Part shown: piece by piece, positions 1 through 62,420 of the stretch | How the letters are laid out: every line of letters begins with the position of its first letter | How positions within the stretch are numbered: the first letter of the stretch is position 1 | Source: Chiloscyllium plagiosum | Taxonomy: Eukaryota | Assembly (NCBI RefSeq): GCF_004010195.1 | Contig: NC_057718.1 | Coordinates: 98,841,794-98,905,793, forward strand | Direction of reading: 5' to 3' | DNA: 64,000 nt | Made by a program: the position numbers and the translations under genes | The notes under the pieces: generated by a model | The model's database searches: none | Told to the model about the DNA's origin: nothing | The model's input: the letters and a program-made list of their open reading frames with translations, nothing else

Positions 1-851
1 ATAAATTTAAAGAGAGTAAAGATTGGCACTAGTTTCACCCTTCACCAATTGGTAATCAGGAAAATATCAACGATACTTCAAATAGTCAAAGCTGGAGCTG
101 GGATTTAAACGTTTGTGTTGGAAATTTATTTGTAACTTAGCCTTTTAATTTTTGTTCACTGAAATGCACACTCAGACCTCATGATAATACAATCCTTGGG
201 TTCCATATTGTGACACTCCACAGAGGTGAGACCATGTTATTCCATAAGCAATAATCTGCATGTTACTACTGAACCACAATGAAATTGGCATAGAGGAAGT
301 AAGATCAGAGAGTTGGATGTGTGGCTCAAAGATTGGCATGGAAGAGATGGGTTTTGATTCATGGGACACTGGCACCAATAGTGAGGGAGTATGGAACTGT
401 ACCATCTGTATCGCGCTAGGACCGGTGTACTGGAAAACTGTGTAACAAAGGTTAAACCATGGACTTTTAGCAAAGTAGTAGGTAAGAGTACAGTGGAAGG
501 TTCAAGTGAGGGATGATTTGTTAAGTTTAGAAGAAAGGCATTAGTCTATTGTAGTGATGCAGGCAAAGATAACCAGAGTACAACAGGAAGGAGGTACTTG
601 TGGCCCAGTAGTAATATCCCTCCCTTTGGGCCATGTGTTCAAGTCCCACCAGCACCAGAGGCATACAATAACACCTCTGAGCAGGCGAATTAGAAAATAT
701 CTACAACGGTACAGAGTATAGAAACATGAATGCACCAGCAAATAAGGTCAGAGTAGGGAGCATTTGGAAAAAGATAAAATTAGAGTCTTTTTTAATATCT
801 GAATGCACTTATAACAAGGGAGATGACTTGATAGTACAAATAGTTATATAG

Positions 852-1195: not shown

Positions 1196-1532
1196 GAGTG
1201 TGATAAGATAACCATGATAGAGACATGGTTGCAAGGTGATTAAGAAAATATCTAGAAGGCATTGGTTTGGTTGCTACTTAAGCACATATAAAGAGCTGCT
1301 TGTCTCTTTATATGTTGGGATCTAAATATCCAAAGGTATTTTACACTTTGGAAGGACACAAAGAGCTGAAAAGGAGGGCTGGGTCACTCTGTTAATAAAG
1401 GATGAATTAGTTCAGTCATAAGAAATGGCGTTGGATTGGAGGAACATGTACAGAACCAGTTTGGATACAGATAAGAAACAGCAAATGAAATAATGATGCA
1501 AGTGGTTTCTAGCAGCCCCCCTGCCCCACTCA

Positions 1533-1872
1533 TGAGAGGCATAGATAGAGTGAATGCCACTCAGTCTTTTTCCCAGGATTGGAGAATTAAAGACTAGCGG
1601 GCATCAGTTTGAGGTAAGGGGGAAAGAATAAAAGGGAACCTGAGGGGCAACATTTTCACACAGAGGGTGGTACGCATGGAATGAGCTGCCAGCGGCAGTG
1701 GTTGGGGCGGGTACATTAATAACAGTTAAAAGGCATTTGGACAAATACGTGGATAGGAAAGGTTTAGAAGGAAATGGGCCAAGTGCAGGGACATGGGGTT
1801 AGTGTGGACGGACATTTTGGTCAGCATGTACCAGTTTGAGCTAAAGGGGCAGTCTCTACTGTTGGACTCTAG
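1533..1872 (+). mobile_element. CR1 3' fragment nested in older CR1
   Basis: TRGH..RGNIFTQRVV..WNELP-type C-terminal text and CR1 3' tail. Confidence 0.8.
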
Positions 1873-4011
1873 ACTTAATGACACTATGATTATTCAAATT
1901 GACAAAATTAGTCTGGAGGATGAGTTCACAGACTATATTTGGGATAGTTTCTTAGAACAACACATTCTAAAACCAATCAGAAATGGAGTATTATAGACCT
2001 GGTTATGTATAATGAGACAGGATTAAGTAATGATCTCGTAGTAAATGGTACACATGGTAAGAGTGATCACAACATGTAAGAATTCACATTCTCTTTGAGG
2101 GTGAGACATTTGGATCTGTCTGCTTGAACTTAATAAAAGCAATTACAGAAGTATGAAGACAAAGTTGACTAAAGTAGAAAGAGAAAATAGTGAAAATGTA
2201 AGACAATGCAGAAACAATGTAGACATTTGAGGAGATCGTAAGTAACTCTTAATAAAGATGTTTTCCACTGAAAAAGTTAGCTGCTATGGAAAGGATCAAT
2301 AGGTAATGAAGGAATGTAAGGAAATGGATAGAAAAGACATACACTGCTGCAAAACATATTAGTACCAGCTCAGGAGATTGTGAAAATGTTAAAAACTAGC
2401 AAAGCATAGGAGCAAGAAATATAAAATTAGACAGTAAAAGCTTCTGTAAGTTTAAGAAAATGGAAAGAGTAACTAAAGTAAGTGTTCATTCCTCAGAAAT
2501 GTGAAGGTGAGTGTGGAATTAATTGTGGGAAACAAGGAAATGGCAAAAAATGTGAACAAGTATTTTGTATCTGTCATCATACTAGAAGACACCAAAACAT
2601 TTCAAGAATAATAGAATTCAGGGCACAAAAGGGAAGGAAGAATGTGCAACAATCTAGATCACGAGAGAAACAGTACGAATGAAGCTAAGACTGGCAGCTC
2701 CCCAGAACCCGGTGCCCTTCATCCTAAACTTTTTAAAACAAAGTTTGCAGGGAGTGTATGCTTTGATTGGAATCTTTCAACATTCCCAGGATTTTCTAAC
2801 AGCCTTGGCAGATTCAAAAACCTCAAATGGTAATTGTCAAGAATGGAGGGAGACAGTGCAAGAAATTATAGGCCTGTTCGCCTAACATCCGTTGTTGGGA
2901 GAATGCTGGATCTCATTATTAAGGAAGAAGTAGCAGGACAATTAGAAAATCATAATACAATCAGGCAGTGACAACATGGTTTGTGAAAGGGAAGTCATGC
3001 TTATTAAGTTTCTTGAGATCTGACAGAGTGAACAAAGGGAAAGCAGCAGATATATTTTCAAAAGGCATTTCACATGGTACCAAATAAAATGTTACTGACT
3101 TCATGATGTTGAGGACGATATTATAACATGGTTAGAGGATTGGCTAACAAACAGAAAATACAGAGTCAGGATGAATGGGTCATCCTTGTGTTTCAAACTA
3201 ACTAGTGGAGTGCTGCAGGGATCAGTGCTGGGGAACTGATCCCAGCATTGTTTAATGTTTTTAATTATTGATTTGAATAAAAAGAGAAACGATACTGTAG
3301 CCAAATTTGCAGGTGATGCAGGAACAGGTAGGAAAGCAAGTTTTGAGGAAGTCATGAAGATTCTTTCAAGGGAGATGGATAGTTTAAATGAGTTGGCAAA
3401 AAAGGAGTAGATGCAGAATAATGGGCGAAAATGTGATCTTGTCCACTTTGGCCAGAACAATAGAAAATTAAATGAAGGGTGACTGTAGAATGCTACAGTA
3501 TAGAGGGATCTGGGTGTCTGTACGTGAATCACAAAAGGACAGCACGCAGTTTCAGCAAGTAATTAGGACACTAAATGGAATGCTAATCTTTATTGCAAGG
3601 GGGACAGTGTTTAAAAATTGGGAGGTCTTGCTGCAACTGTTCAAGCAATTAATGAGACTGCAGCCTGAGTAAAGTGTATAGGCTAAGACTCTTAACTTAA
3701 AAAGAGATGTACTTATTTTAGAAATTATTCAGTGCAATTTCATTGGCTTATTCTTTAGATGAAAGGATTGTCTTATGAAGAAAGATTGAGCAGGTTTGGC
3801 CTATACCCATTGGAGTTTAGGAGGTTCAGATGTGATCTTATTGAAACGTACTAAACCCTGAGAGGGGGCTTAACAGGGTGGATGCCCTGAGGATGTTTCC
3901 TTTTCGATTCTCCTGCTCCCTGGATGCAGCCTGACCTGCAGTGCTTTTTCCAGCGCCACACTTTTCAACTCTGATCTCTGTGGGGATGCAGTTTAAAAGT
4001 ATCAGTCATTT

Positions 4012-12185: not shown

Positions 12186-12313
12186 GCCTATGGCTGTACT
12201 AGTCTGAAAACAATCTCATTTTGGAATTTGGATTTTGGAAGTGAAGCAGACTCAGTTCTGGTTGGCACTTGGATGGGAGACTGCCTGGGAATGCCAGATA
12301 TTATGGAAAAAAA
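12186..12313 (+). pseudogene. Degenerate 5S rRNA pseudogene or 5S-derived SINE3 head with short A tail
   Basis: gcctatggctgtactagtctgaaaac...gaagcag...ctggttggcacttggatgggagactgcctgggaatgccag aligns colinearly with vertebrate 5S rRNA, including the C box. Confidence 0.7.
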
Positions 12314-25176: not shown

Positions 25177-25477
25177 GAGAGTGTGTGGTGTTGGAAAAGC
25201 ACAGCAGGTCAGGCAGCATCCAAGGAGCAGGCGAATCAACATTTCAGGTATGACCCCTTCATCAGGAATATGCCTAAAGCTTATGCCTGAAATGTTGACT
25301 CTCCCTCATTCCTGATGAAGGGCTTATGCCCAAAATGTCGATTCTCCATTCCTGATGATTGGCTTATGCCAGAAATGTTGATTCTCCTGCTCCTCGGATG
25401 CTGCCTGACATGTTGTGCTTTTCCAGCACCACACTCTCGACTCTGATCACCAGCATCTGCAGTCCTCACTTTCTTCT
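25177..25477. mobile_element. Family A PLE-derived palindromic element with tandem HHR repeats
   Basis: Inverted arms; ctgatga cores at 25312 and 25352 (40-nt period) plus a minus-strand core at ~25240-25266. Confidence 0.85.
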
Positions 25478-28800: not shown

Positions 28801-29221
28801 TACAAGTTAATTTTTTTAAAAACTGTGAGCAATGGCATCTTGTTTATGAACATTTCCCATCCAAAGGAAGGGTTGTAGTGACATATAATTTCTGCAAGAA
28901 ACACTGTTGAAAATAGACAAAAGTCTTTTGAACTTATTTCATTTGCAACATGTACTAATATGTGTTTTGTATGAATTTTCAACTGGGGTAATGTACCTAA
29001 TTTCCTCAAGTGAAAAACAAATTATCAACCCCTGCCTTGGATGTACTCAATGACTATTCTAAATTGCATTTTTGTCTGAATGTTGCTGTGTATATTGCCA
29101 GCTGATGTGCAGAACTTACAATAATCTAACTCCAATAAAGATAGGAATATCATGACCCATGAGACAAACTTTGGGATAAACGCATCATTCACACTCCATA
29201 AATAGCTGTACTGACACAATT

Positions 29222-39569: not shown

Positions 39570-40628
39570 ATCGGTGGGTTTGTAAAAATCGGTGGGTACC
39601 TAGATTACACCTCTTCCCACCCTACCTCTTGCAAAAATGCCATCCCGTATTCCCAATTCCTCCGCCTCCGCCGTATCTGCTCCCAGGAGGACCAGTTCCA
39701 CCACAGAACACACCAGATGGCCTCCTTTTTTAGAGACCGCAATTTCCCTTCCCACGTTGTTAAAGATGCCCTCCAACGCATCTCGTCCACATCCCACACC
39801 TCCGCCCTCAGACCCAACCCCTCCAACCGCAACAAGGACAGAACGCCCCTGGTGCACACCTTCCACCCTACCAACCTTCGCATAAACCAAACCATCCGCC
39901 GACATTTCCGCCACCTCCAAACAGACCCCACCACCAGGGATATATTTCCCTCCCCACACCTTTCCGNNNNNNNNNNNNNNNNNNNNNNNNNNNNNNNNNN
40001 NNNNNNNNNNNNNNNNNNNNNNNNNNNNNNNNNNNNNNNNNNNNNNNNNNNNNNNNNNNNNNNNNNNNNNNNNNNNNNNNNNNNNNNNNNNNNNNNNNNN
40101 NNNNNNNNNNNNNNNNNNNNNNNNNNNNNNNNNNNNNNNNNNNNNNNNNNNNNNNNNNNNNNNNNNNNNNNNNNNNNNNNNNNNNNNNNNNNNNNNNNNN
40201 NNNNNNNNNNNNNNNNNNNNNNNNNNNNNNNNNNNNNNNNNNNNNNNNNNNNNNNNNNNNNNNNNNNNNNNNNNNNNNNNNNNNNNNNNNNNNNNNNNNN
40301 NNNNNNNNNNNNNNNNNNNNNNNNNNNNNNNNNNNNNNNNNNNNNNNNNNNNNNNNNNNNNNNNNNNNNNNNNNNNNNNNNNNNNNNNNNNNNNNNNNNN
40401 NNNNNNNNNNNNNNNNNNNNNNNNNNCCTATCACCTTCATCCCCTCCCCCACTCACCTATTGTACTCTATGCTACTTTCTCCCCACCCCCACCCTCCTCT
40501 AGTTCATCTCTCCATGCTTTAGGCTCTCTGCCTTTATTCCTGATGAAGGGCTTTTGCCTGAAATGTCAATTTCGCTGCTCCTTGGATGCTGCCTGAACTG
40601 CTGTGCTCTTCCAGCACCACTAATCCAG
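39570..40628 (+). mobile_element. Penelope-like element (tentatively Neptune-type), 5'-truncated, spanning the assembly gap; ends in the family A HHR-bearing terminal repeat
   Basis: Open frame from 39597: YLDYTSSHPTSCKNAIPYSQFLRLRRICS...RTPLVHTFHP; after the gap CTGATGA at 40540-40546 and GAAATGTC at 40560-40567. Confidence 0.85.
39967..40426. other. Assembly gap (460 N)
   Basis: Run of N. Confidence 1.
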
Positions 40629-48119: not shown

Positions 48120-50408
48120 AAAATTAAAAATAATAATAAGCATCTACTTCTACTTTATAAGGGTAGGGAGGGAAACAGGTGGAGGAAGTCTAGCACTGGG
48201 GCAGGAGTTGAAATCAGGCCATTCAGGAGAAAACTCAGAAAATACTTCTTTACAAAAAGAGAAGTGTGGAGAAGTCTCTCCATCAAAAGAAAAGCAGGTG
48301 CTAATGCAATTAATGATTTTAAATCTAATATCAAGAAATTCATTTGCAAGGTGAGAGGAAAAAGAGCCAAGGGGTGCAGATGGAGTTAAGATACAAATTA
48401 GACATGACCTTATTGAATGGTGGAACGGATTCATAATCATGTATTGTTCAACTCTTATTCATGTTTCTTATCTTCATGTATTAACTCACATTGTCACAGC
48501 TTGTCTTGAGGAAGCAGTAAGGAAACTGGGGAGAAGGGAATGTGAATGGATTGCCCAAGGATCAATCAAGAGAATCGATTCCATTTTCATTGTCTCTACC
48601 TTGCTGAGGCACGGTTGAGGAAAAATCTAGATTATTCGCTGCCTTATTTAAATCCTCATAGGTCTTCCTCATAGGTCTAGAGACAGTGAAGCTGAAAAAG
48701 ACACTTGGTTGGGGATTTAGTCTGATTGCTTCCTATCCTACTGGCTGTGGCCTCGATGGAGAATACCAGTAAAATTCTGCTCATTCAATTAACCAAAAAG
48801 AACACAAAAAAACCTAGCTGGATTCTACTTGCAAAGGGTGAAATGGGGTTTAAATTAAATATATGGAAATCAGACAAGCATGGTATTTGACCTATGGTAA
48901 CCCCTACAGCTGCTAAAAATCGTACATTTCTCATTCAGACCTGGCAATTTCCTTTCAAGATTACGTTGTCATCTGCTCGTACATAGTAAGTGGGAGGAAA
49001 TAAAGCAAAATGCAAGCAATAAGAAATAATTGCATTCATCTTTGTGCCTCCAGCTGTGCTTTATATAATCTATCAAATAAAATCGCTTCTATTTCTGCTT
49101 TACTCCTTTCTCCTTTTATTGTCTTCCCTACAGAGTTTACATGGGGTCCAATTTAAACTGTGTTAGTGAGTGGGTGTTGAATGAGTTTAAAATCCGGCCC
49201 TTACAGTTCAAGTCAGTACACACCATACCCCAACATCTCCTTCATGTCAGAGCAGGACATCCTGAGGTCTGAGGTACCTTTACAAAGACTGAACAACAAA
49301 TATGGGTCTTCTTATGTATCAGCAGCAGGCTGTGAACCTGCCCCCATGAGGTTGTCCAAGATAATGATGTTGCTTGGTTCGGCCACTGTTGGAATATTGC
49401 ATGCAATTCTGGTCTCCTTTCTATCGGAAAGATGTTGTGAAACTTGAAAGGGTTCAGAAAAGATTTACAAGGATGGGCTGGTACAATTACAACATTTAAG
49501 AGGCATTTGGATGGGTATATGAATAGGAAGGGTTTGGAGGGATATGGGCCGAGTGCTGGCAGGGGGGACTAGATTGGGTTGGGATATCTGGTCAGCATGG
49601 ACGAGTTGGACCAAAGGATCTGTTTCCATGCTGTACATCTCTATAACTCTATGTTTCACAAATGGATTCCTTGATCCTGGTTTATTTTCCAGGACCTGGT
49701 TGAGGTGCACAAGATTAAGGGTGGCATGGACAGGGTGCAAGGAAACAGCAATTCCTTTCAGTTGAAGGGTCAATAACAAAGGAGGACAATTTTAAAGTGG
49801 ACGGCAGGAGTTTAGAGGGGATTTGATGAAAAGTATTTTCACCCAGAGGGTGGTGGAGTCCAGAATGCACTGCCTGGGAGGGTATCTGAGGCAAGAAACC
49901 TCACAGTCTATAAGAAATGCTTGGGTGAGCACTTGAAATGTCATAACATTCAAGGCTATCGGCCAAGAGCTGGAAAGTGGGACTAGTGTAGGTAGTAGCA
50001 TTTCTTTGGCAGTACTTGGTGGGCTGTAAGGCCTCTCCTGTACTATATGATTCTATCATTCAATGATTCTACACCATTTGATAGCATCTTTTATCTTATG
50101 TAGCGAAACATCTGTCCTTGACGAATGTGTTGATGAAGCAAATTGAAATGCTGACGAAATTCTCTCCAATACGGTTTCCTATGTATATATAATTCGCAAG
50201 CTTTTGTTTTCAAAATGAATTGACTAATCGGGTATTGCTACATTTTAAAAACTAAATAAATGGAATTTCTCTGAGAATTCATGTGTCAGGAACATCTTGC
50301 TCCAATTGGAATGTCTCAATAATGAATCAAAATAGTACAAAATACTGTCACATGGGGAAGACCTTCTAGCTATATCGCTTGTCCCACACAGTTGCAATAC
50401 TTTGTGTA

Positions 50409-50684
50409 GGGTGTAGGTTTGCTCGCTGAGCTGTAGGCTTGATATCCAGACGTTTCATTACCTGGCTAGGTAACATCATCAGTGGCGACCTCCAAGTGAA
50501 GCGAAGCTGTCTATTTATATCTTTCTCCTGGAAGCAGGAGACAACAGCTTCGCTTCACTTGGAGGTCGCCACTGATGATGTTACCTAGCCAGGTAATGAA
50601 ACGTCTGGATATCAAACCTACAGCTCAGCGAGCAAACCTACACCCTAAACCTCAACCTGAGCTACAAACTTCACAAACCTTGCG
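50409..50684. mobile_element. Family C PLE-derived 276-bp hairpin element with an HHR on each strand
   Basis: Perfect 13-bp TSD aatactttgtgta (50396-50408, 50685-50697); ~104-bp inverted arms 50407-50510 / 50544-50647 with one mismatch. Confidence 0.92.
50569..50608 (+). ncRNA. Minimal type I hammerhead ribozyme motif (mirror copy on minus strand at 50446-50485)
   Basis: cca-CTGATGA-t-GTTACCT-agcc-AGGTAAT-GAAA-C-GTC-tgg: stem I cca/tgg, 7-bp stem II, palindromic ACGT stem III, GUC cleavage triplet ending at 50605. Confidence 0.8.
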
Positions 50685-51127
50685 AATACTTTGTGTACCC
50701 CACTATAAAAATTCTCCATTTCACCAAAACCCATGCGATCTTTTGGAAGAGGCGAGAAAAGCAGATTAAAAAGCCAGGTAAGAATTCGGGGAAATTAAAT
50801 GCAGGAAATTATTTCTGACCCTCAAAGCAATTGAAACTCATCAGGGAGATTTGGATGGTGGTGGTGGCACACTGTTGATGTTCAACGATATTCAGAATGC
50901 CAAGTCTATTTTCCTGGGAATGTAAGTTCAAATCCCATCAATAGAATCAGGGGTCAAATTTTCTAATCCCCCAAGGATTCTTTGTGAGAGATTCTCATGG
51001 ACTTCATTTTGATTTTTGGGGATCATTTTTAGTTTTTAGGGGCTCCTTTCTCATTCTCACTAACCTCTGTGCTGGATAACCACCCAGGGACGGAGTGCTT
51101 GCTGTTCTCACTCCTACCACTTTTTTA

Positions 51128-51549: not shown

Positions 51550-52035
51550 AAAGTTTTGTAGTTTGGGTGCTGGTTGCTTGGGTGGTTGTGGGTATGTTGG
51601 TCGAGTTGGGAAGTTGATTTGCAGACATTTCGGCCCCTGTCTGGGTGACATCTTCAGTGCTTTGGAGCCTATAGATGAGTGCCATGCTTCTACAAAATTC
51701 TCTGGCCACACACACAGATGACAAGGACCACAAATTCAACTGGGACAACACAATCATCATAGCTAAACAGAGGACAGCCAGAGAATTTCTAGAAGCATGG
51801 CACTCATCCACAGACTCCATCAACAGACACATAGACCTAGACCCAATATATCGGCAACTACAATGAACAACGGGAACCAGCAACCGGAAGCAACAGGATC
51901 AGAACCAGATAAATTCCAGGAGATACAGTACAGCAGCGCTTCACAGGAGGCTCCAAAGCCCTGAAGATGCCACCTAGACACGGGGAGGAAATGTCTGCAA
52001 ATCAACTTCCCAGCTCAGCGAACATACCCACAATT
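51550..52035. mobile_element. Penelope/Poseidon-type PLE 3' fragment with inverted terminal repeat; HHR-like motifs on both strands
   Basis: HKFNWDNTIIIAKQRTAREFLEAWHS..INRHIDLDPIY; HHR cores at 51621-51660 (-) and from 51961 (+). Confidence 0.85.
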
Positions 52036-56314: not shown

Positions 56315-56728
56315 AAGTTTGGGAGAAGATTTGTAGCTAGGGTGCTCGTTGTTGTGGTTCTGTTCGCCGAGCTGGGAATTTGTGTTGCAGACATTTCGTC
56401 CCCTGTCTAGGTGACATCCTCAGTGCTTGGGAGCCTCCTGTGAAGCGCTTCTGTAATCTTTCCTCTGGCATTTGTAGTGGTTTGAATCTGCTGCTTCCGG
56501 TTGTCAGTTCCAGCTGTCCGTTGCAGTGGTCGGTATATTGGGTCCAGGTCGACGTGTTTGTTGATTGAATCTGTGGATGAGTGCCATGCCTCTAGGAATT
56601 CCCTGGCTGTTCTCTGTTTGGCTTGTCCTATAATAATAGTGTTGTCCCAGTCGAATTCATGTTGCTTGTCATCTGCGTGTGTGGCTACTAAGGATAGCTG
56701 GTCGTGTGGTTTCGTGGCTAGTTGGTGC
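56315..56728 (-). mobile_element. Penelope/Poseidon-type PLE 3' end (GIY-YIG C-terminal region and terminal repeat with HHR)
   Basis: HQLATKPHDQLSLVATHADDKQHEFDWDN...REFLEAWHS; gca-CTGAGGA-t-gtcacct..aggggac-GAAAT-GTC-tgc at 56387-56426 (-). Confidence 0.88.
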
Positions 56729-56943
56729 AGATTTCCTCTGCATCTCAACACCATCTGCTGACCTTCATTCACATTCTTATTTTTATTTATCAAATATCTA
56801 TCAAACTCAGTCTTTAAATTTTAATTGACCCAAATTTTGAGGGACGATAGTTATGAATGTGCATATGTACATCAATGAGTTGCTGCAGGAGTGCTGCACT
56901 GTCAAAAGTATAAAACATTAAATCAAGGTGTTTATGAAACAAT

Positions 56944-57914: not shown

Positions 57915-58678
57915 TACCATCCTGAGAATCCCCTAACCCTAACCCAAACAAGCAGACAAAACACGTCCAGAAACCCTAGCCATTCTCCCCTACATCAAAG
58001 GCATCTCGAAAATGACTGCCAGACTCCCTTGGCATCACGGAAGCCCCCAAACCCACCAACACACTTAAACAGCAGCTAATGAACTTGAAAGACCCTGTAT
58101 AGACAATGAGCAAAACATGTGTCATTGTAATGTCATTTACAAAATATCGTAACAAACAAATATTGCAAGAACTGTAACAAACACCACACTGGACAAACAG
58201 GCAGAAAGCTAGCCACCAGGATACATGAACACCAACTAGCCACAAAAAGACATGACTGTCTCTCACTAGTATCCTTACACACAAATGAGGAAGGACACCA
58301 CTTCGACTGGGATAACACATCCATCCTAGGACAAACCAAACAAAGACACACATGAAAATTCCTAGAAGCATGGCATTCCAACCAGAACTCTCTCAACAAA
58401 CACATCAAGTTAGACCCCATCTACCACCCCCTGAGAAAATGAACAGGAAGTGAATTCACCACTGGAAATGACATCACCACAAGAAATGACATCACCAACC
58501 CAAAGAAACCCAAACATATAAATAGAAAGCAGGAATTATCAGCAGTACTTCGCTTGAGGCTCACTGAAGATGTTACCTAGTAGGGTGATGAAATGTCTGG
58601 AAATGAACCTTCCAGCTTAGCGAGCAAACCTACATCCAAAATCTCAACCCGAGCTACAAATCTTCTCAAAACTCGCTA
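57915..58678 (+). mobile_element. Penelope/Poseidon-type PLE 3' portion (decayed GIY-YIG endonuclease and HHR-bearing terminal repeat)
   Basis: Frameshifted LAILPYIKGIS...TGQTGRKLATRIHEH...HFDWDN..FLEAWHS; CTGAAGA 58564-58570, GAAATGTC 58590-58597. Confidence 0.85.
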
Positions 58679-61599: not shown

Positions 61600-62420
61600 C
61601 GTGAGTTCCTTGAAAATGGAGTTGCAAATAGACAGGACAGTGAAGAAGGCTTTTGGCATCCTTGCCTTTATTAATCAGTGCACTGAGTATAGGAGTTGGG
61701 AGGTCATGTTGCAGCTGTACAGAACATTGGTGAGGTCACTTCGAGAAAACCTTATTTATTTCCATCTCCCTTCTATAGGAAAGATGTTGTTAAACTTGCA
61801 AGTATTTAGAAAAGATTTACAAGGATGTTGCCAGGTTTGGAGGATTTTGACTATAGGGAAAGGCTGAAAAATGTGTTGCTGGAAAAGCGCAGCAGCTTAG
61901 GCAGCATCCAAGGAGCAGGAGAACCGACATTTCGGGCATAAGCCCTTCTTCAGGATTCCTGAAGAAGGGCTTATCTGCAGTATCTGCAGTCTGCAGTCCT
62001 TACTTTCTCCTATAGGGAAAGGCTGAATAGGATGGGGCTATTTTCCCTGGAGCATTGGAGGCTGATGGGTGACCAAACAGGCATGGAGAGGGTGAATAGC
62101 CAACATGAATTCCCCAGGGTTGGGGGAGTCCAAAACTAAAGGGCATTGGTTTAAGGTGAGAGTGGAAAGAATTAAAAAGGACATGTGGGGTGACTAGAGG
62201 GTGGTGGGTGTATCGAATAAGCTGCCAGAGGAAGTGGTGGAGGTTAGTACAATTACAACATTTAAAAGGTGCCTGGATGGGTATATGAATAGGAAGGGTT
62301 TAGAGGTCTGTGGGCCAAGTGCTGGCAAATGGGATTAGATTAATTTCAGATATCTGATCAATGTGGGCAAGTTGGTCCAAAGGGTCTGTTTCCATGCTGT
62401 ACGTCTCTTATGACTCTATG
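61600..62420 (+). mobile_element. CR1 3' portion interrupted by a family A element (61869-62009)
   Basis: Duplication ctatagggaaaggctgaa at 61851-61868 and 62010-62027 flanks the insert. Confidence 0.85.

Follow-up and report, generated by a model that had tools for sequence, protein, structure and literature searches.

Is a short, strongly self-complementary insert with a hammerhead ribozyme (HHR) motif on each strand a mobile unit in its own right, or is it a scrap of a larger element? The question is raised by a 276-bp insert at positions 50409-50684 of a 64,000-nt stretch of the Chiloscyllium plagiosum genome (contig NC_057718.1; the whole stretch is called the window below). The first-pass annotation of the window, made from the letters alone, assigned the insert to family C of a system of tiny hairpin retro-inserts, other members of which were placed in the sequence-unrelated families A, B and E. 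The answer suggested by our analysis is simpler. With a probability of about 0.87, a single dead-on-arrival event inserted here the 3' end of an autonomous Penelope-like element (PLE), likely by a cut of both target strands and reverse transcription from both DNA ends. What was taken for a system of hairpin retro-insert families is ordinary debris left by several families of PLEs, and every feature of the first-pass description is already in print (Arkhipova et al. 2013; Cervera and de la Pena 2014; Craig et al. 2021; Frangieh et al. 2024; Li, Clavereau and Pollet 2026).

Structure of the insert

The insert is bounded by two perfect copies of AATACTTTGTGTA, in agreement with the 13-bp target site duplication (TSD) of the first-pass annotation, and the whole interval is 50396-50697. 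The duplicated target is AT-rich. Positions within family C are counted from the C of CTGATGA (position 0) on the long genomic copy L044, taken as the reference. On this scale the family has two 3' sites, the tail end at +112 and the no-tail end at +72..+80. The features of the insert are:

50396-50408: left copy of the TSD AATACTTTGTGTA, 13 bp, 100% identical to the right copy
50409-50510, minus strand: left (inverted) arm, reverse complement of the element from about -28 to +76, with an HHR motif on the minus strand
50446-50485, minus strand: mirror hammerhead motif, core 50482-50452
50511-50531, minus strand: remainder of the left arm (parent positions -62 to -42 in reverse complement), CCAGGAGAAAGATATAAATAG, endonuclease-coding
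50532-50650, plus strand: right (direct) arm, element from about -40 to +78
50569-50608, plus strand: minimal type I hammerhead motif, core 50572-50602, predicted cut after C50605
50651-50684, plus strand: AC-rich tail of 34 nt, present on the right arm only and reaching +112
50685-50697: right copy of the TSD AATACTTTGTGTA, 13 bp, 100% identical to the left copy

As an inverted repeat, the arms occupy 50404-50510 and 50544-50650; each is 107 nt long and they are 98% complementary, close to the near-perfect arms of about 104 bp described at the first pass. The outer end of the left arm is the no-tail 3' site (...ACACCCTA), without a tail. The arms abut with no junction filler, the 33 nt apparently lying between them being the portion of the left arm that has no counterpart in the right one. 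Alignment with the long copies L046 and L041 demonstrates that the left arm lacks parent positions -41 to -29 (13 nt).

The right arm consists of the last 18 codons and the stop codon of an endonuclease open reading frame (ORF), the HHR motif and the start of the next open frame. The C-terminal tail of the endonuclease ORF matches 50532-50585 at 100% (tblastn), and the tail of the insert ends 110 nt past the first ATG of the frame initiated in the HHR motif. The insert is composed of the last 18 codons of an element ORF, a hammerhead and the first 36 codons of the HHR-initiated frame. The earlier statement that it has no ORF holds for complete ORFs; it does not hold for the right arm, which codes for the C-terminal 18 residues of the endonuclease and opens an ATG-initiated frame.

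The coding parent of family C

Most of the 83 matches listed in the 3.56-Gb genome span only positions 124-276 of the query, that is, the right arm and the tail, with identity of 97-99%. In BLAST comparisons among 30 fetched loci the 3' end is constant and the 5' extents are very different. At 25 non-redundant family C loci mapped on L044, the direct arms start nearby at -39, -42, -49, -50, -53, -53, -54, -54, -71, -100, -106 and -124, or far upstream at -197, -204, -227, -257, -262, -296, -395, -451, -484, -517, -522, -639 and beyond -847.

A 309-aa frame of L039 (1935-2861, minus strand) matches the Pfam domain RVT_1 with 44.6 bits against a cut-off of 29.6, and contains what we take to be PLE-specific reverse transcriptase (RT) motifs, spotted by eye. 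Directly downstream of it is a 219-aa frame (1309-1965, minus strand) with, by sequence, the same NVIYKIPCKDC...GQTGRKLATRIHEH motif as the L041 ORF; frames of this type are present in L037, L038, L040, L041 and L044. The GIY-YIG domain scores 20 bits in L041 (E 8.5e-4) and 18 bits in L044 (E 2.9e-3). A protein search of the genome lists more than 150 endonuclease-like places, including an uninterrupted 764-aa frame (L046). Of the long copies examined for an intact parent ORF, L032-L034 break off at about 1.1 kb, and L045 and L046 consist in part of N. The genome search with Pfam GIY-YIG produced a single weak match, and Pfam returned nothing useful for the short degenerate ORF pieces of L015. 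The RT ORF has no matches among the PDB sequences, and in the protein atlas it matches generic animal RT clusters alone (RVT_1, HTH_animal).

The endonuclease frame terminates with ...LHLEVATDDVT* at a TAG within the loop of stem II of the HHR motif. The next open frame begins at ATGs 50575 and 50578 in the HHR core, inside CUGAUGAUG (MMLPSQVMKRLDIKPTAQRANLHPKPQPELQT...), and continues through the tail; this ATG likely is the start of the next ORF of the element. Since the endonuclease ORF ends within the same HHR that starts the next frame, family C has almost no non-coding repeat. On sequence grounds, the arms are identified as the constant 3' terminus of a putative autonomous PLE with RT- and GIY-YIG endonuclease-coding sequence.

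Three older relatives of family C, 66-72% identical, are located in the window at 56325-56748 (minus strand), 57915-58676 (plus strand) and 51702-52033 (plus strand). They retain endonuclease-coding sequence and degenerate HHR motifs (56423, 58564). The family C end (50544-50684) was also sampled in sequencing runs under four organism codes, where 0.89-1.00 of its sampled words are present. With this end present under all four codes, the family should be young and common to related species, or should have spread between them.

Head-to-head pairs and their junctions

An inverted arm adjoins the direct one at 9 of the 25 loci (L001-L005, L018, L020, L022, L030). In these nine pairs the outer end of the inverted arm is at +72..+80, and that of its partner at +111..+115. 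The tenth family C head-to-head pair is L046, where an inverted tail-bearing arm is followed by the copy with the 764-aa frame, which ends at the no-tail site; the flanks are CCCTACTAC. This locus is the hairpin design at full size. All ten pairs, from loci chosen with a tail-bearing query, consist of one tail arm and one no-tail arm. L011 and L017 contain atypical inverted pieces with ends at +40 and -76.

The inner ends of the inverted arms, in the order of the nine loci above, are -27, -54, -54, -53, -50, -189, -764, -146 and +31; that of L046 falls within a stretch of N. The junction fillers of the short hairpins L002-L005 are 7, 3, 2 and 34 nt, and that of the window copy is zero. Six of the eight arms of L002-L005 are 94-98% identical to the long copies (the other two, 86% and 88.6%), and the whole hairpins are 82-90% identical to each other. 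The left arm of the window copy extends 11 nt beyond the usual 5' stop, into endonuclease-coding sequence, and so its template was a longer PLE RNA. Since junctions, fillers and breakpoints differ from locus to locus, the hairpins arose independently, as abortive PLE insertions. The first-pass annotation had suggested that they may be an amplifying family and had named unique breakpoints as evidence to the contrary, and the comparison of breakpoints went against amplification: in family C the inner breakpoints vary from +31 to -764, with differing fillers.

Contigs of public sequencing runs were aligned to 50050-51050. Many contigs stop at 50649 or at about 50683 and then continue into AT-rich non-matching sequence, which confirms the two genomic 3' ends; an AT-rich flank consensus is seen beside both. 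Contigs diverging just before 50532 into the parent upstream sequence number 47 in run X15 and 37 in run X19. One X19 contig covers 50642-51050 with zero differences. Run X15 is labelled with a different organism; there, 50685-51050 is covered by one contig, of depth 7.44, with an additional 88 letters, and this depth recurs at 50322-50389. This fits an empty site in X15 and an insert that is real and recent.

Hammerhead motifs

The family C motif is CCA / CUGAUGA / U / GUUACCU-AGCC-AGGUAAU / GAAA / CG / UC / UGG, with a 7-bp stem II and the loop AGCC. The motif scan found a complete candidate minimal hammerhead on each strand of the insert, as had been predicted. The core positions C3-A9, G12-A14 and U16.1-H17 are all present, together with helices I and II in the type I order. 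The entire window was scanned for CUGANGA, zero or one extra base, a stem II of at least 4 bp and then GAAA. This resulted in 16 HHR-like motifs, compared with a mean of 0.38 (maximum 3) over 200 dinucleotide shuffles, which is an approximately 40-fold excess. A palindromic helix III and UH are additionally present in 8 of the 16, against 0.015 in the shuffles.

The stem II sequences are GGGC/GCCC in family A, GGAGC/GCUCC in family B and GUUACCU/AGGUAAU in family C, and helix III is ACGU, AGCU and ACGU, respectively. The stems are mutually unrelated, yet each of them pairs, and the core is the sole common part. The extra base after A9 and the palindromic helix III (ACGU or AGCU), noticed at the first pass, do occur in all three families. 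In many copies the CG of helix III has decayed to TG or CA (GAAAtgtc).

The hammerhead families of Rfam (types I, II, III, HH9, HH10) have no matches at the gathering score in the whole window. In the region 50300-50800 (501 nt) there are no hammerhead matches with E up to 10 either, the only matches being to generic long hairpins (miRNA-like). Such a miss is expected, as helix III is 1 bp with a 2-nt loop. Judging by the motif itself, these are genuine PLE-type motifs and putative ribozymes.

The predicted fold of a whole-insert transcript is a near-perfect hairpin (-219.6 kcal/mol, z = -29.9) with about 100 bp of double-stranded RNA, where both ribozyme cores are paired with antisense. As each core pairs with its own antisense in this predicted fold, the hammerheads would be inactive in the whole-hairpin transcript. 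Among 244 raw reads of run X21, in both orientations, on one family C copy, there is no pile-up of read starts or ends, including at the predicted cut; this evidence is weak, as the library is a poly(A) single-cell one. A second RNA run, X22, gave no aligned reads, and no RNA run was listed as containing the window sequence. Reads of the same run continue into A stretches at L044 positions 1818, 1966, 2011 and 2360, one of them about 12 nt before the tail end. These extensions may be due to internal priming or to polyadenylated ends.

Other families in the window

The pooled sequence consists of the window and 95 loci (373 kb non-N) and contains seven incidental copies of family C, too few for measuring a 5' hot spot of that family free of selection bias. 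The family A unit, ATTCCTGATGA...CTCCT, is 132 bp long, or 88 bp without its 44-nt tail. The distribution of 3' ends has two modes, at unit positions 85-91 (26 of 59 incidental arms) and at positions 121-132 (27 of 59). There are 23 family A pairs, about half of them incidental, and 22 combine a tail arm with a no-tail arm, the remaining one having ends at 132 and 79. Tail/tail, no-tail/no-tail and tail-to-tail arrangements are absent among these 23 pairs. Twenty different combinations of inner breakpoints are observed. Solo arms are found 34 times with the tail and 14 times without it; those near ATTCCTGATGA include arms at window positions 29219, 35182 and 40536 and in loci L048-L075. The hypothesis of a leading polymerase, under which the no-tail arm would always be longer, was rejected, as pairs of the two kinds are roughly equal in number. 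The 5' ends have no clear peak at the HHR cut site (5 of 59 arms at unit positions 31-35). In two long family A copies there are weak endonuclease-like tblastn matches 250-520 nt upstream.

Full-unit head-to-tail arrays are absent among 108 family A hits. The two same-strand adjacent pairs among these hits are both partial internal duplications, at window positions 25301-25477 (unit -6..40 followed by 1..132) and at L084 1949-2083 (unit 14..68 followed by 50..131). Their appearance is that of template switching in the course of reverse transcription. The family A copy with the HHR motif at 40540 has homology that continues upstream, and immediately before this copy is a 460-base run of N (39967-40426), which may cover part of a longer PLE copy.

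The truncation points of family B lie 12 to 716 nt upstream, and in many copies ...TTTTTAACTTTG is followed by tccaccccagtccaacaccggcacctccacatc, a tail of about 33 nt. At about 0.9-1.1 kb upstream there is a YIGETKQTL-like stretch, which to the eye resembles an endonuclease and has BLASTP E-values of 0.36-0.41 against the family C endonuclease. The search for a coding parent of family B gave nothing in Pfam and no tblastn match within 1450 nt upstream.

The recurrent design described at the first pass is real in so far as inverted pairs occur in families A, B and C. An HHR motif on both arms, however, is seen in only 3 of the 10 inverted pairs of these families located at the positions given then (51550 excluded):

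25179, 50404, 62617: HHR motif on both arms
9146, 26469, 41513: HHR motif on one arm
4012, 6216, 36504, 60387: no HHR motif passing the scan

Other assignments had to be withdrawn. The copy at 61869 is a single arm, and that at 51550 is a longer truncated copy still containing endonuclease-coding sequence. The family E copies (15513, 18762) have no HHR motif and are relatives of the 3' part of family A. Flanking duplications were reproduced as exact repeats of 8-15 bp at 9 of the 18 inserts tested.

Comparison with known systems

PLE insertions are highly 5'-truncated, often with an inverted 5'-truncated copy at the 5' end, have a 30-40-bp tail at one end and carry HHRs in their pseudo-long terminal repeats, or pLTRs (Craig et al. 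2021, PMC8557442). Solo pLTRs have been reported, as have inverted pairs of pLTRs flanked by a TSD and bearing a tail of 31 bp; pLTRs include the first ORF codons and have palindromic or TATA-like 5' ends (Arkhipova et al. 2013, PMC3846280). The traits of the insertions are reproduced here. Variable 5' truncation and adjacent inverted copies are seen at the 25 family C loci, in L046 and in the 23 family A pairs. Tails of 34 nt (family C), 44 nt (family A) and about 33 nt (family B) are present, with two alternative 3' termini. The Penelope/Poseidon and Neptune units have the same head-to-head arms, one-sided tail and TSD in an AT-rich target. The insert is an extreme case of this organization: two end pieces of about 140-150 nt, and nothing else. 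The asymmetry of the tail is strict here (10/10 family C and 22/23 family A pairs), whereas in the descriptions of published PLEs it occurs "often" or "optionally".

The closest experimental parallel is the Poseidon element of the anole. Its protein cuts and extends both DNA strands and prefers AT-rich targets (Frangieh et al. 2024, PMC11167929). The element has two internal RT start sites with the tail between them, 111-118 nt into the ORF (PMC11167929), close to the 110 nt between the first ATG of the HHR-initiated frame and the tail end observed here. The anole ORF also starts in the HHR, which needs protein and is dispensable for insertion in vitro (PMC11167929).

In the minimal hammerheads of PLE repeats helix II is long and helix I short, stem II is preceded by an unpaired base, and helix III has tiny, palindromic variants; self-cleavage is low, being poor unless protein or a dimer context is provided (Cervera and de la Pena 2014, PMC4209133). 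They occur mostly as single dispersed motifs or as opposite-strand pairs 100-700 bp apart, attributed to truncated PLEs (PMC4209133). The motifs considered here have the same CUGAUGA / GAAA / UH core, short helix I, long helix II (7 bp in family C), unpaired 5' base of stem II and palindromic helix III suited to dimers, and the same massive dispersal, singly and in opposite-strand pairs. Compared with the described metazoan PLE motifs there is no difference in kind; only the sequences of A, B and C are particular to this genome.

Non-LTR retrozymes are likewise HHR-bearing and ORF-less, and they are related to the pLTRs of PLEs, whose enzymes likely move them. Cervera and de la Pena, in 2020, reportedly characterized such animal retrozymes as ORF-less, HHR-bearing relatives of PLEs. 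Tandem non-LTR retrozymes derived from PLE pLTRs were described recently (Li, Clavereau and Pollet 2026, bioRxiv 10.64898/2026.07.22.740005). However, retrozymes are head-to-tail tandems yielding circular RNAs, whereas the copies considered here are head-to-head or single, and their template is coding. Retrozyme identity was rejected because of the absence of full-unit tandems among the 108 family A hits and the presence of endonuclease-coding sequence in the window copy and in its family.

Twin priming of LINE-1 elements produces a 5' inverted segment by target-primed reverse transcription at both DNA ends. In the inversions of L1, two different, neighbouring segments of one RNA are joined; here a single segment is copied in both arms, from two fixed internal sites.

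Proposed mechanism and alternatives

By analogy with the anole Poseidon in vitro, the enzyme of the element would cut both strands of an AT-rich target and reverse-transcribe its RNA from both DNA ends. The right arm (-40 to +112) would stem from priming of one DNA end at the outer start site, and the left arm (-62 to +76) from priming of the other DNA end at the inner one. Each cDNA would halt after about 150 nt, the two would be joined head to head, and the 13-bp duplication would result from the staggered cuts. The hammerhead motifs would be passengers of the insertion: they adjoin the start of reverse transcription, and for this reason every short insertion carries them. The first-pass suspicion that the inserts are made by the PLE machinery rather than being DNA MITEs (miniature inverted-repeat transposable elements), and that their hammerheads are of the PLE minimal type, is upheld.

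Several consequences follow for annotation. In this 3.56-Gb CpG-depleted genome (observed/expected CpG of 0.25 in the window, at 41.8% G+C), MITE-like hairpin repeats flanked by TSDs are to be annotated as truncated PLE ends. The many hammerhead motifs would be by-products of the position where PLE reverse transcription starts, and not a separate ribozyme-based mobile system. The copies would document, in nature, the two 3' start sites known from in vitro work on one lizard element.

A number of observations weigh against this scheme. Two-sided priming is borrowed from in vitro work on another species, where either strand made use of both start sites (PMC11167929); by itself this does not predict strictly one tail per pair. 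Random truncation does not explain the clusters of arm ends at -51 in family C and just before ATTCCTGATGA in family A. The GIY-YIG scores (20 and 18 bits) fall just under the Pfam cut-off of 22.6. With no Rfam match, the ribozyme call is a matter of the motif and the published descriptors, and the empty-site reading of X15 is one of matched contig depths.

The first-pass annotation favoured a non-autonomous hairpin, retrozyme-like or MITE-like, that would be transcribed, might cleave itself with ribozymes on either strand and would be copied by PLE enzymes as one unit, hairpins giving rise to hairpins. Such derivatives of PLEs are known in the form of non-LTR retrozymes (bioRxiv 10.64898/2026.07.22.740005), and L002-L005 do match the whole 276-bp query at 82-90% identity, with both arms ending near -50..-54. 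However, the junctions of these same four loci and of the window copy differ, as described above, and by this alone the amplifying-hairpin model is largely refuted. Moreover, six of the eight arms are closer to the long copies than the hairpins are to each other, the breakpoints of the other family C and family A pairs range widely, the window left arm holds endonuclease-coding sequence beyond the usual stop, the predicted hairpin RNA buries both ribozyme cores, and full-unit head-to-tail arrays are absent among the 108 family A hits. We consider this explanation very improbable. A DNA-transposon MITE with terminal inverted repeats would account for the inverted arms, the TSD and the absence of a complete ORF, but its chances are negligible: the arms are asymmetric, with a 34-nt tail on one side, the supposed terminal repeat is the 3' end of an element coding for RT and endonuclease, found mostly as single, non-inverted, 5'-truncated copies, and the flanking repeats vary from 8 to 15 bp.

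The clusters of arm ends could be understood if the short units, chiefly the 132-bp family A unit, were copied from a dedicated short RNA and were not random truncations of a full-length one. Such an RNA could be a pLTR-only transcript, or the 5' end of the PLE mRNA, if reverse transcription began at the 5'-proximal start-site copy and ran off the end. Within -4..+5 of ATTCCTGATGA start 21 of the 59 incidental family A arms, and within -7..+5 of it 26 of the 50 solo arms; several family A units are directly flanked by TSDs. The family C arms of L002, L004, L005, L016 and L021 all stop at ATATAAATAG, position -51, and fixed-length pLTRs with a palindrome or a TATA-like 5' end have been described (PMC3846280). 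On the other hand, the insert itself avoids the hot spot, as its left arm reaches -62 and its right arm starts at -40; the X21 reads (a poly(A) single-cell library) have no accumulation of molecule starts or ends; and an AT-rich, partly palindromic boundary fits equally well a favoured microhomology joint. A dedicated short template is thus tentative, being somewhat less probable than its absence. The run-off reading was not found stated in the available parts of the literature on PLE RNA starts and solo pLTRs, supplements aside.

Returning to two-sided priming of PLE RNA, the strict pairing of a tail arm with a no-tail arm points to concerted use of the two start sites, as under independent choice the solo ratio of 34:14 would give only about 42% of mixed pairs. 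These data suggest that pairing of the two sites is obligatory in vivo, which is a modest addition to the poorly understood mechanism of PLE transposition. One possibility is that a dimeric enzyme bound to a single RNA makes each head-to-head insertion in one concerted step, using the outer and the inner site, and that many of the tiny inserts are run-off copies, stopping where the RNA of the element has its 5' end. In this case each pair has exactly one tail because the two DNA ends always prime at different sites. In this combined form the proposal is rather unlikely. If it is true, the RNA start of any PLE family, like its two RT start sites, can be mapped from genomic scars alone, and hairpins read through by host transcription could feed small-RNA silencing of the start region of the element.

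Other observations

Window positions 12186-12309 (plus strand) match 5S rRNA with 41.7 bits (gathering score 38), with an 18-nt insertion and several broken pairs. This segment may be a 5S pseudogene or the head of a 5S-derived short interspersed element (SINE).

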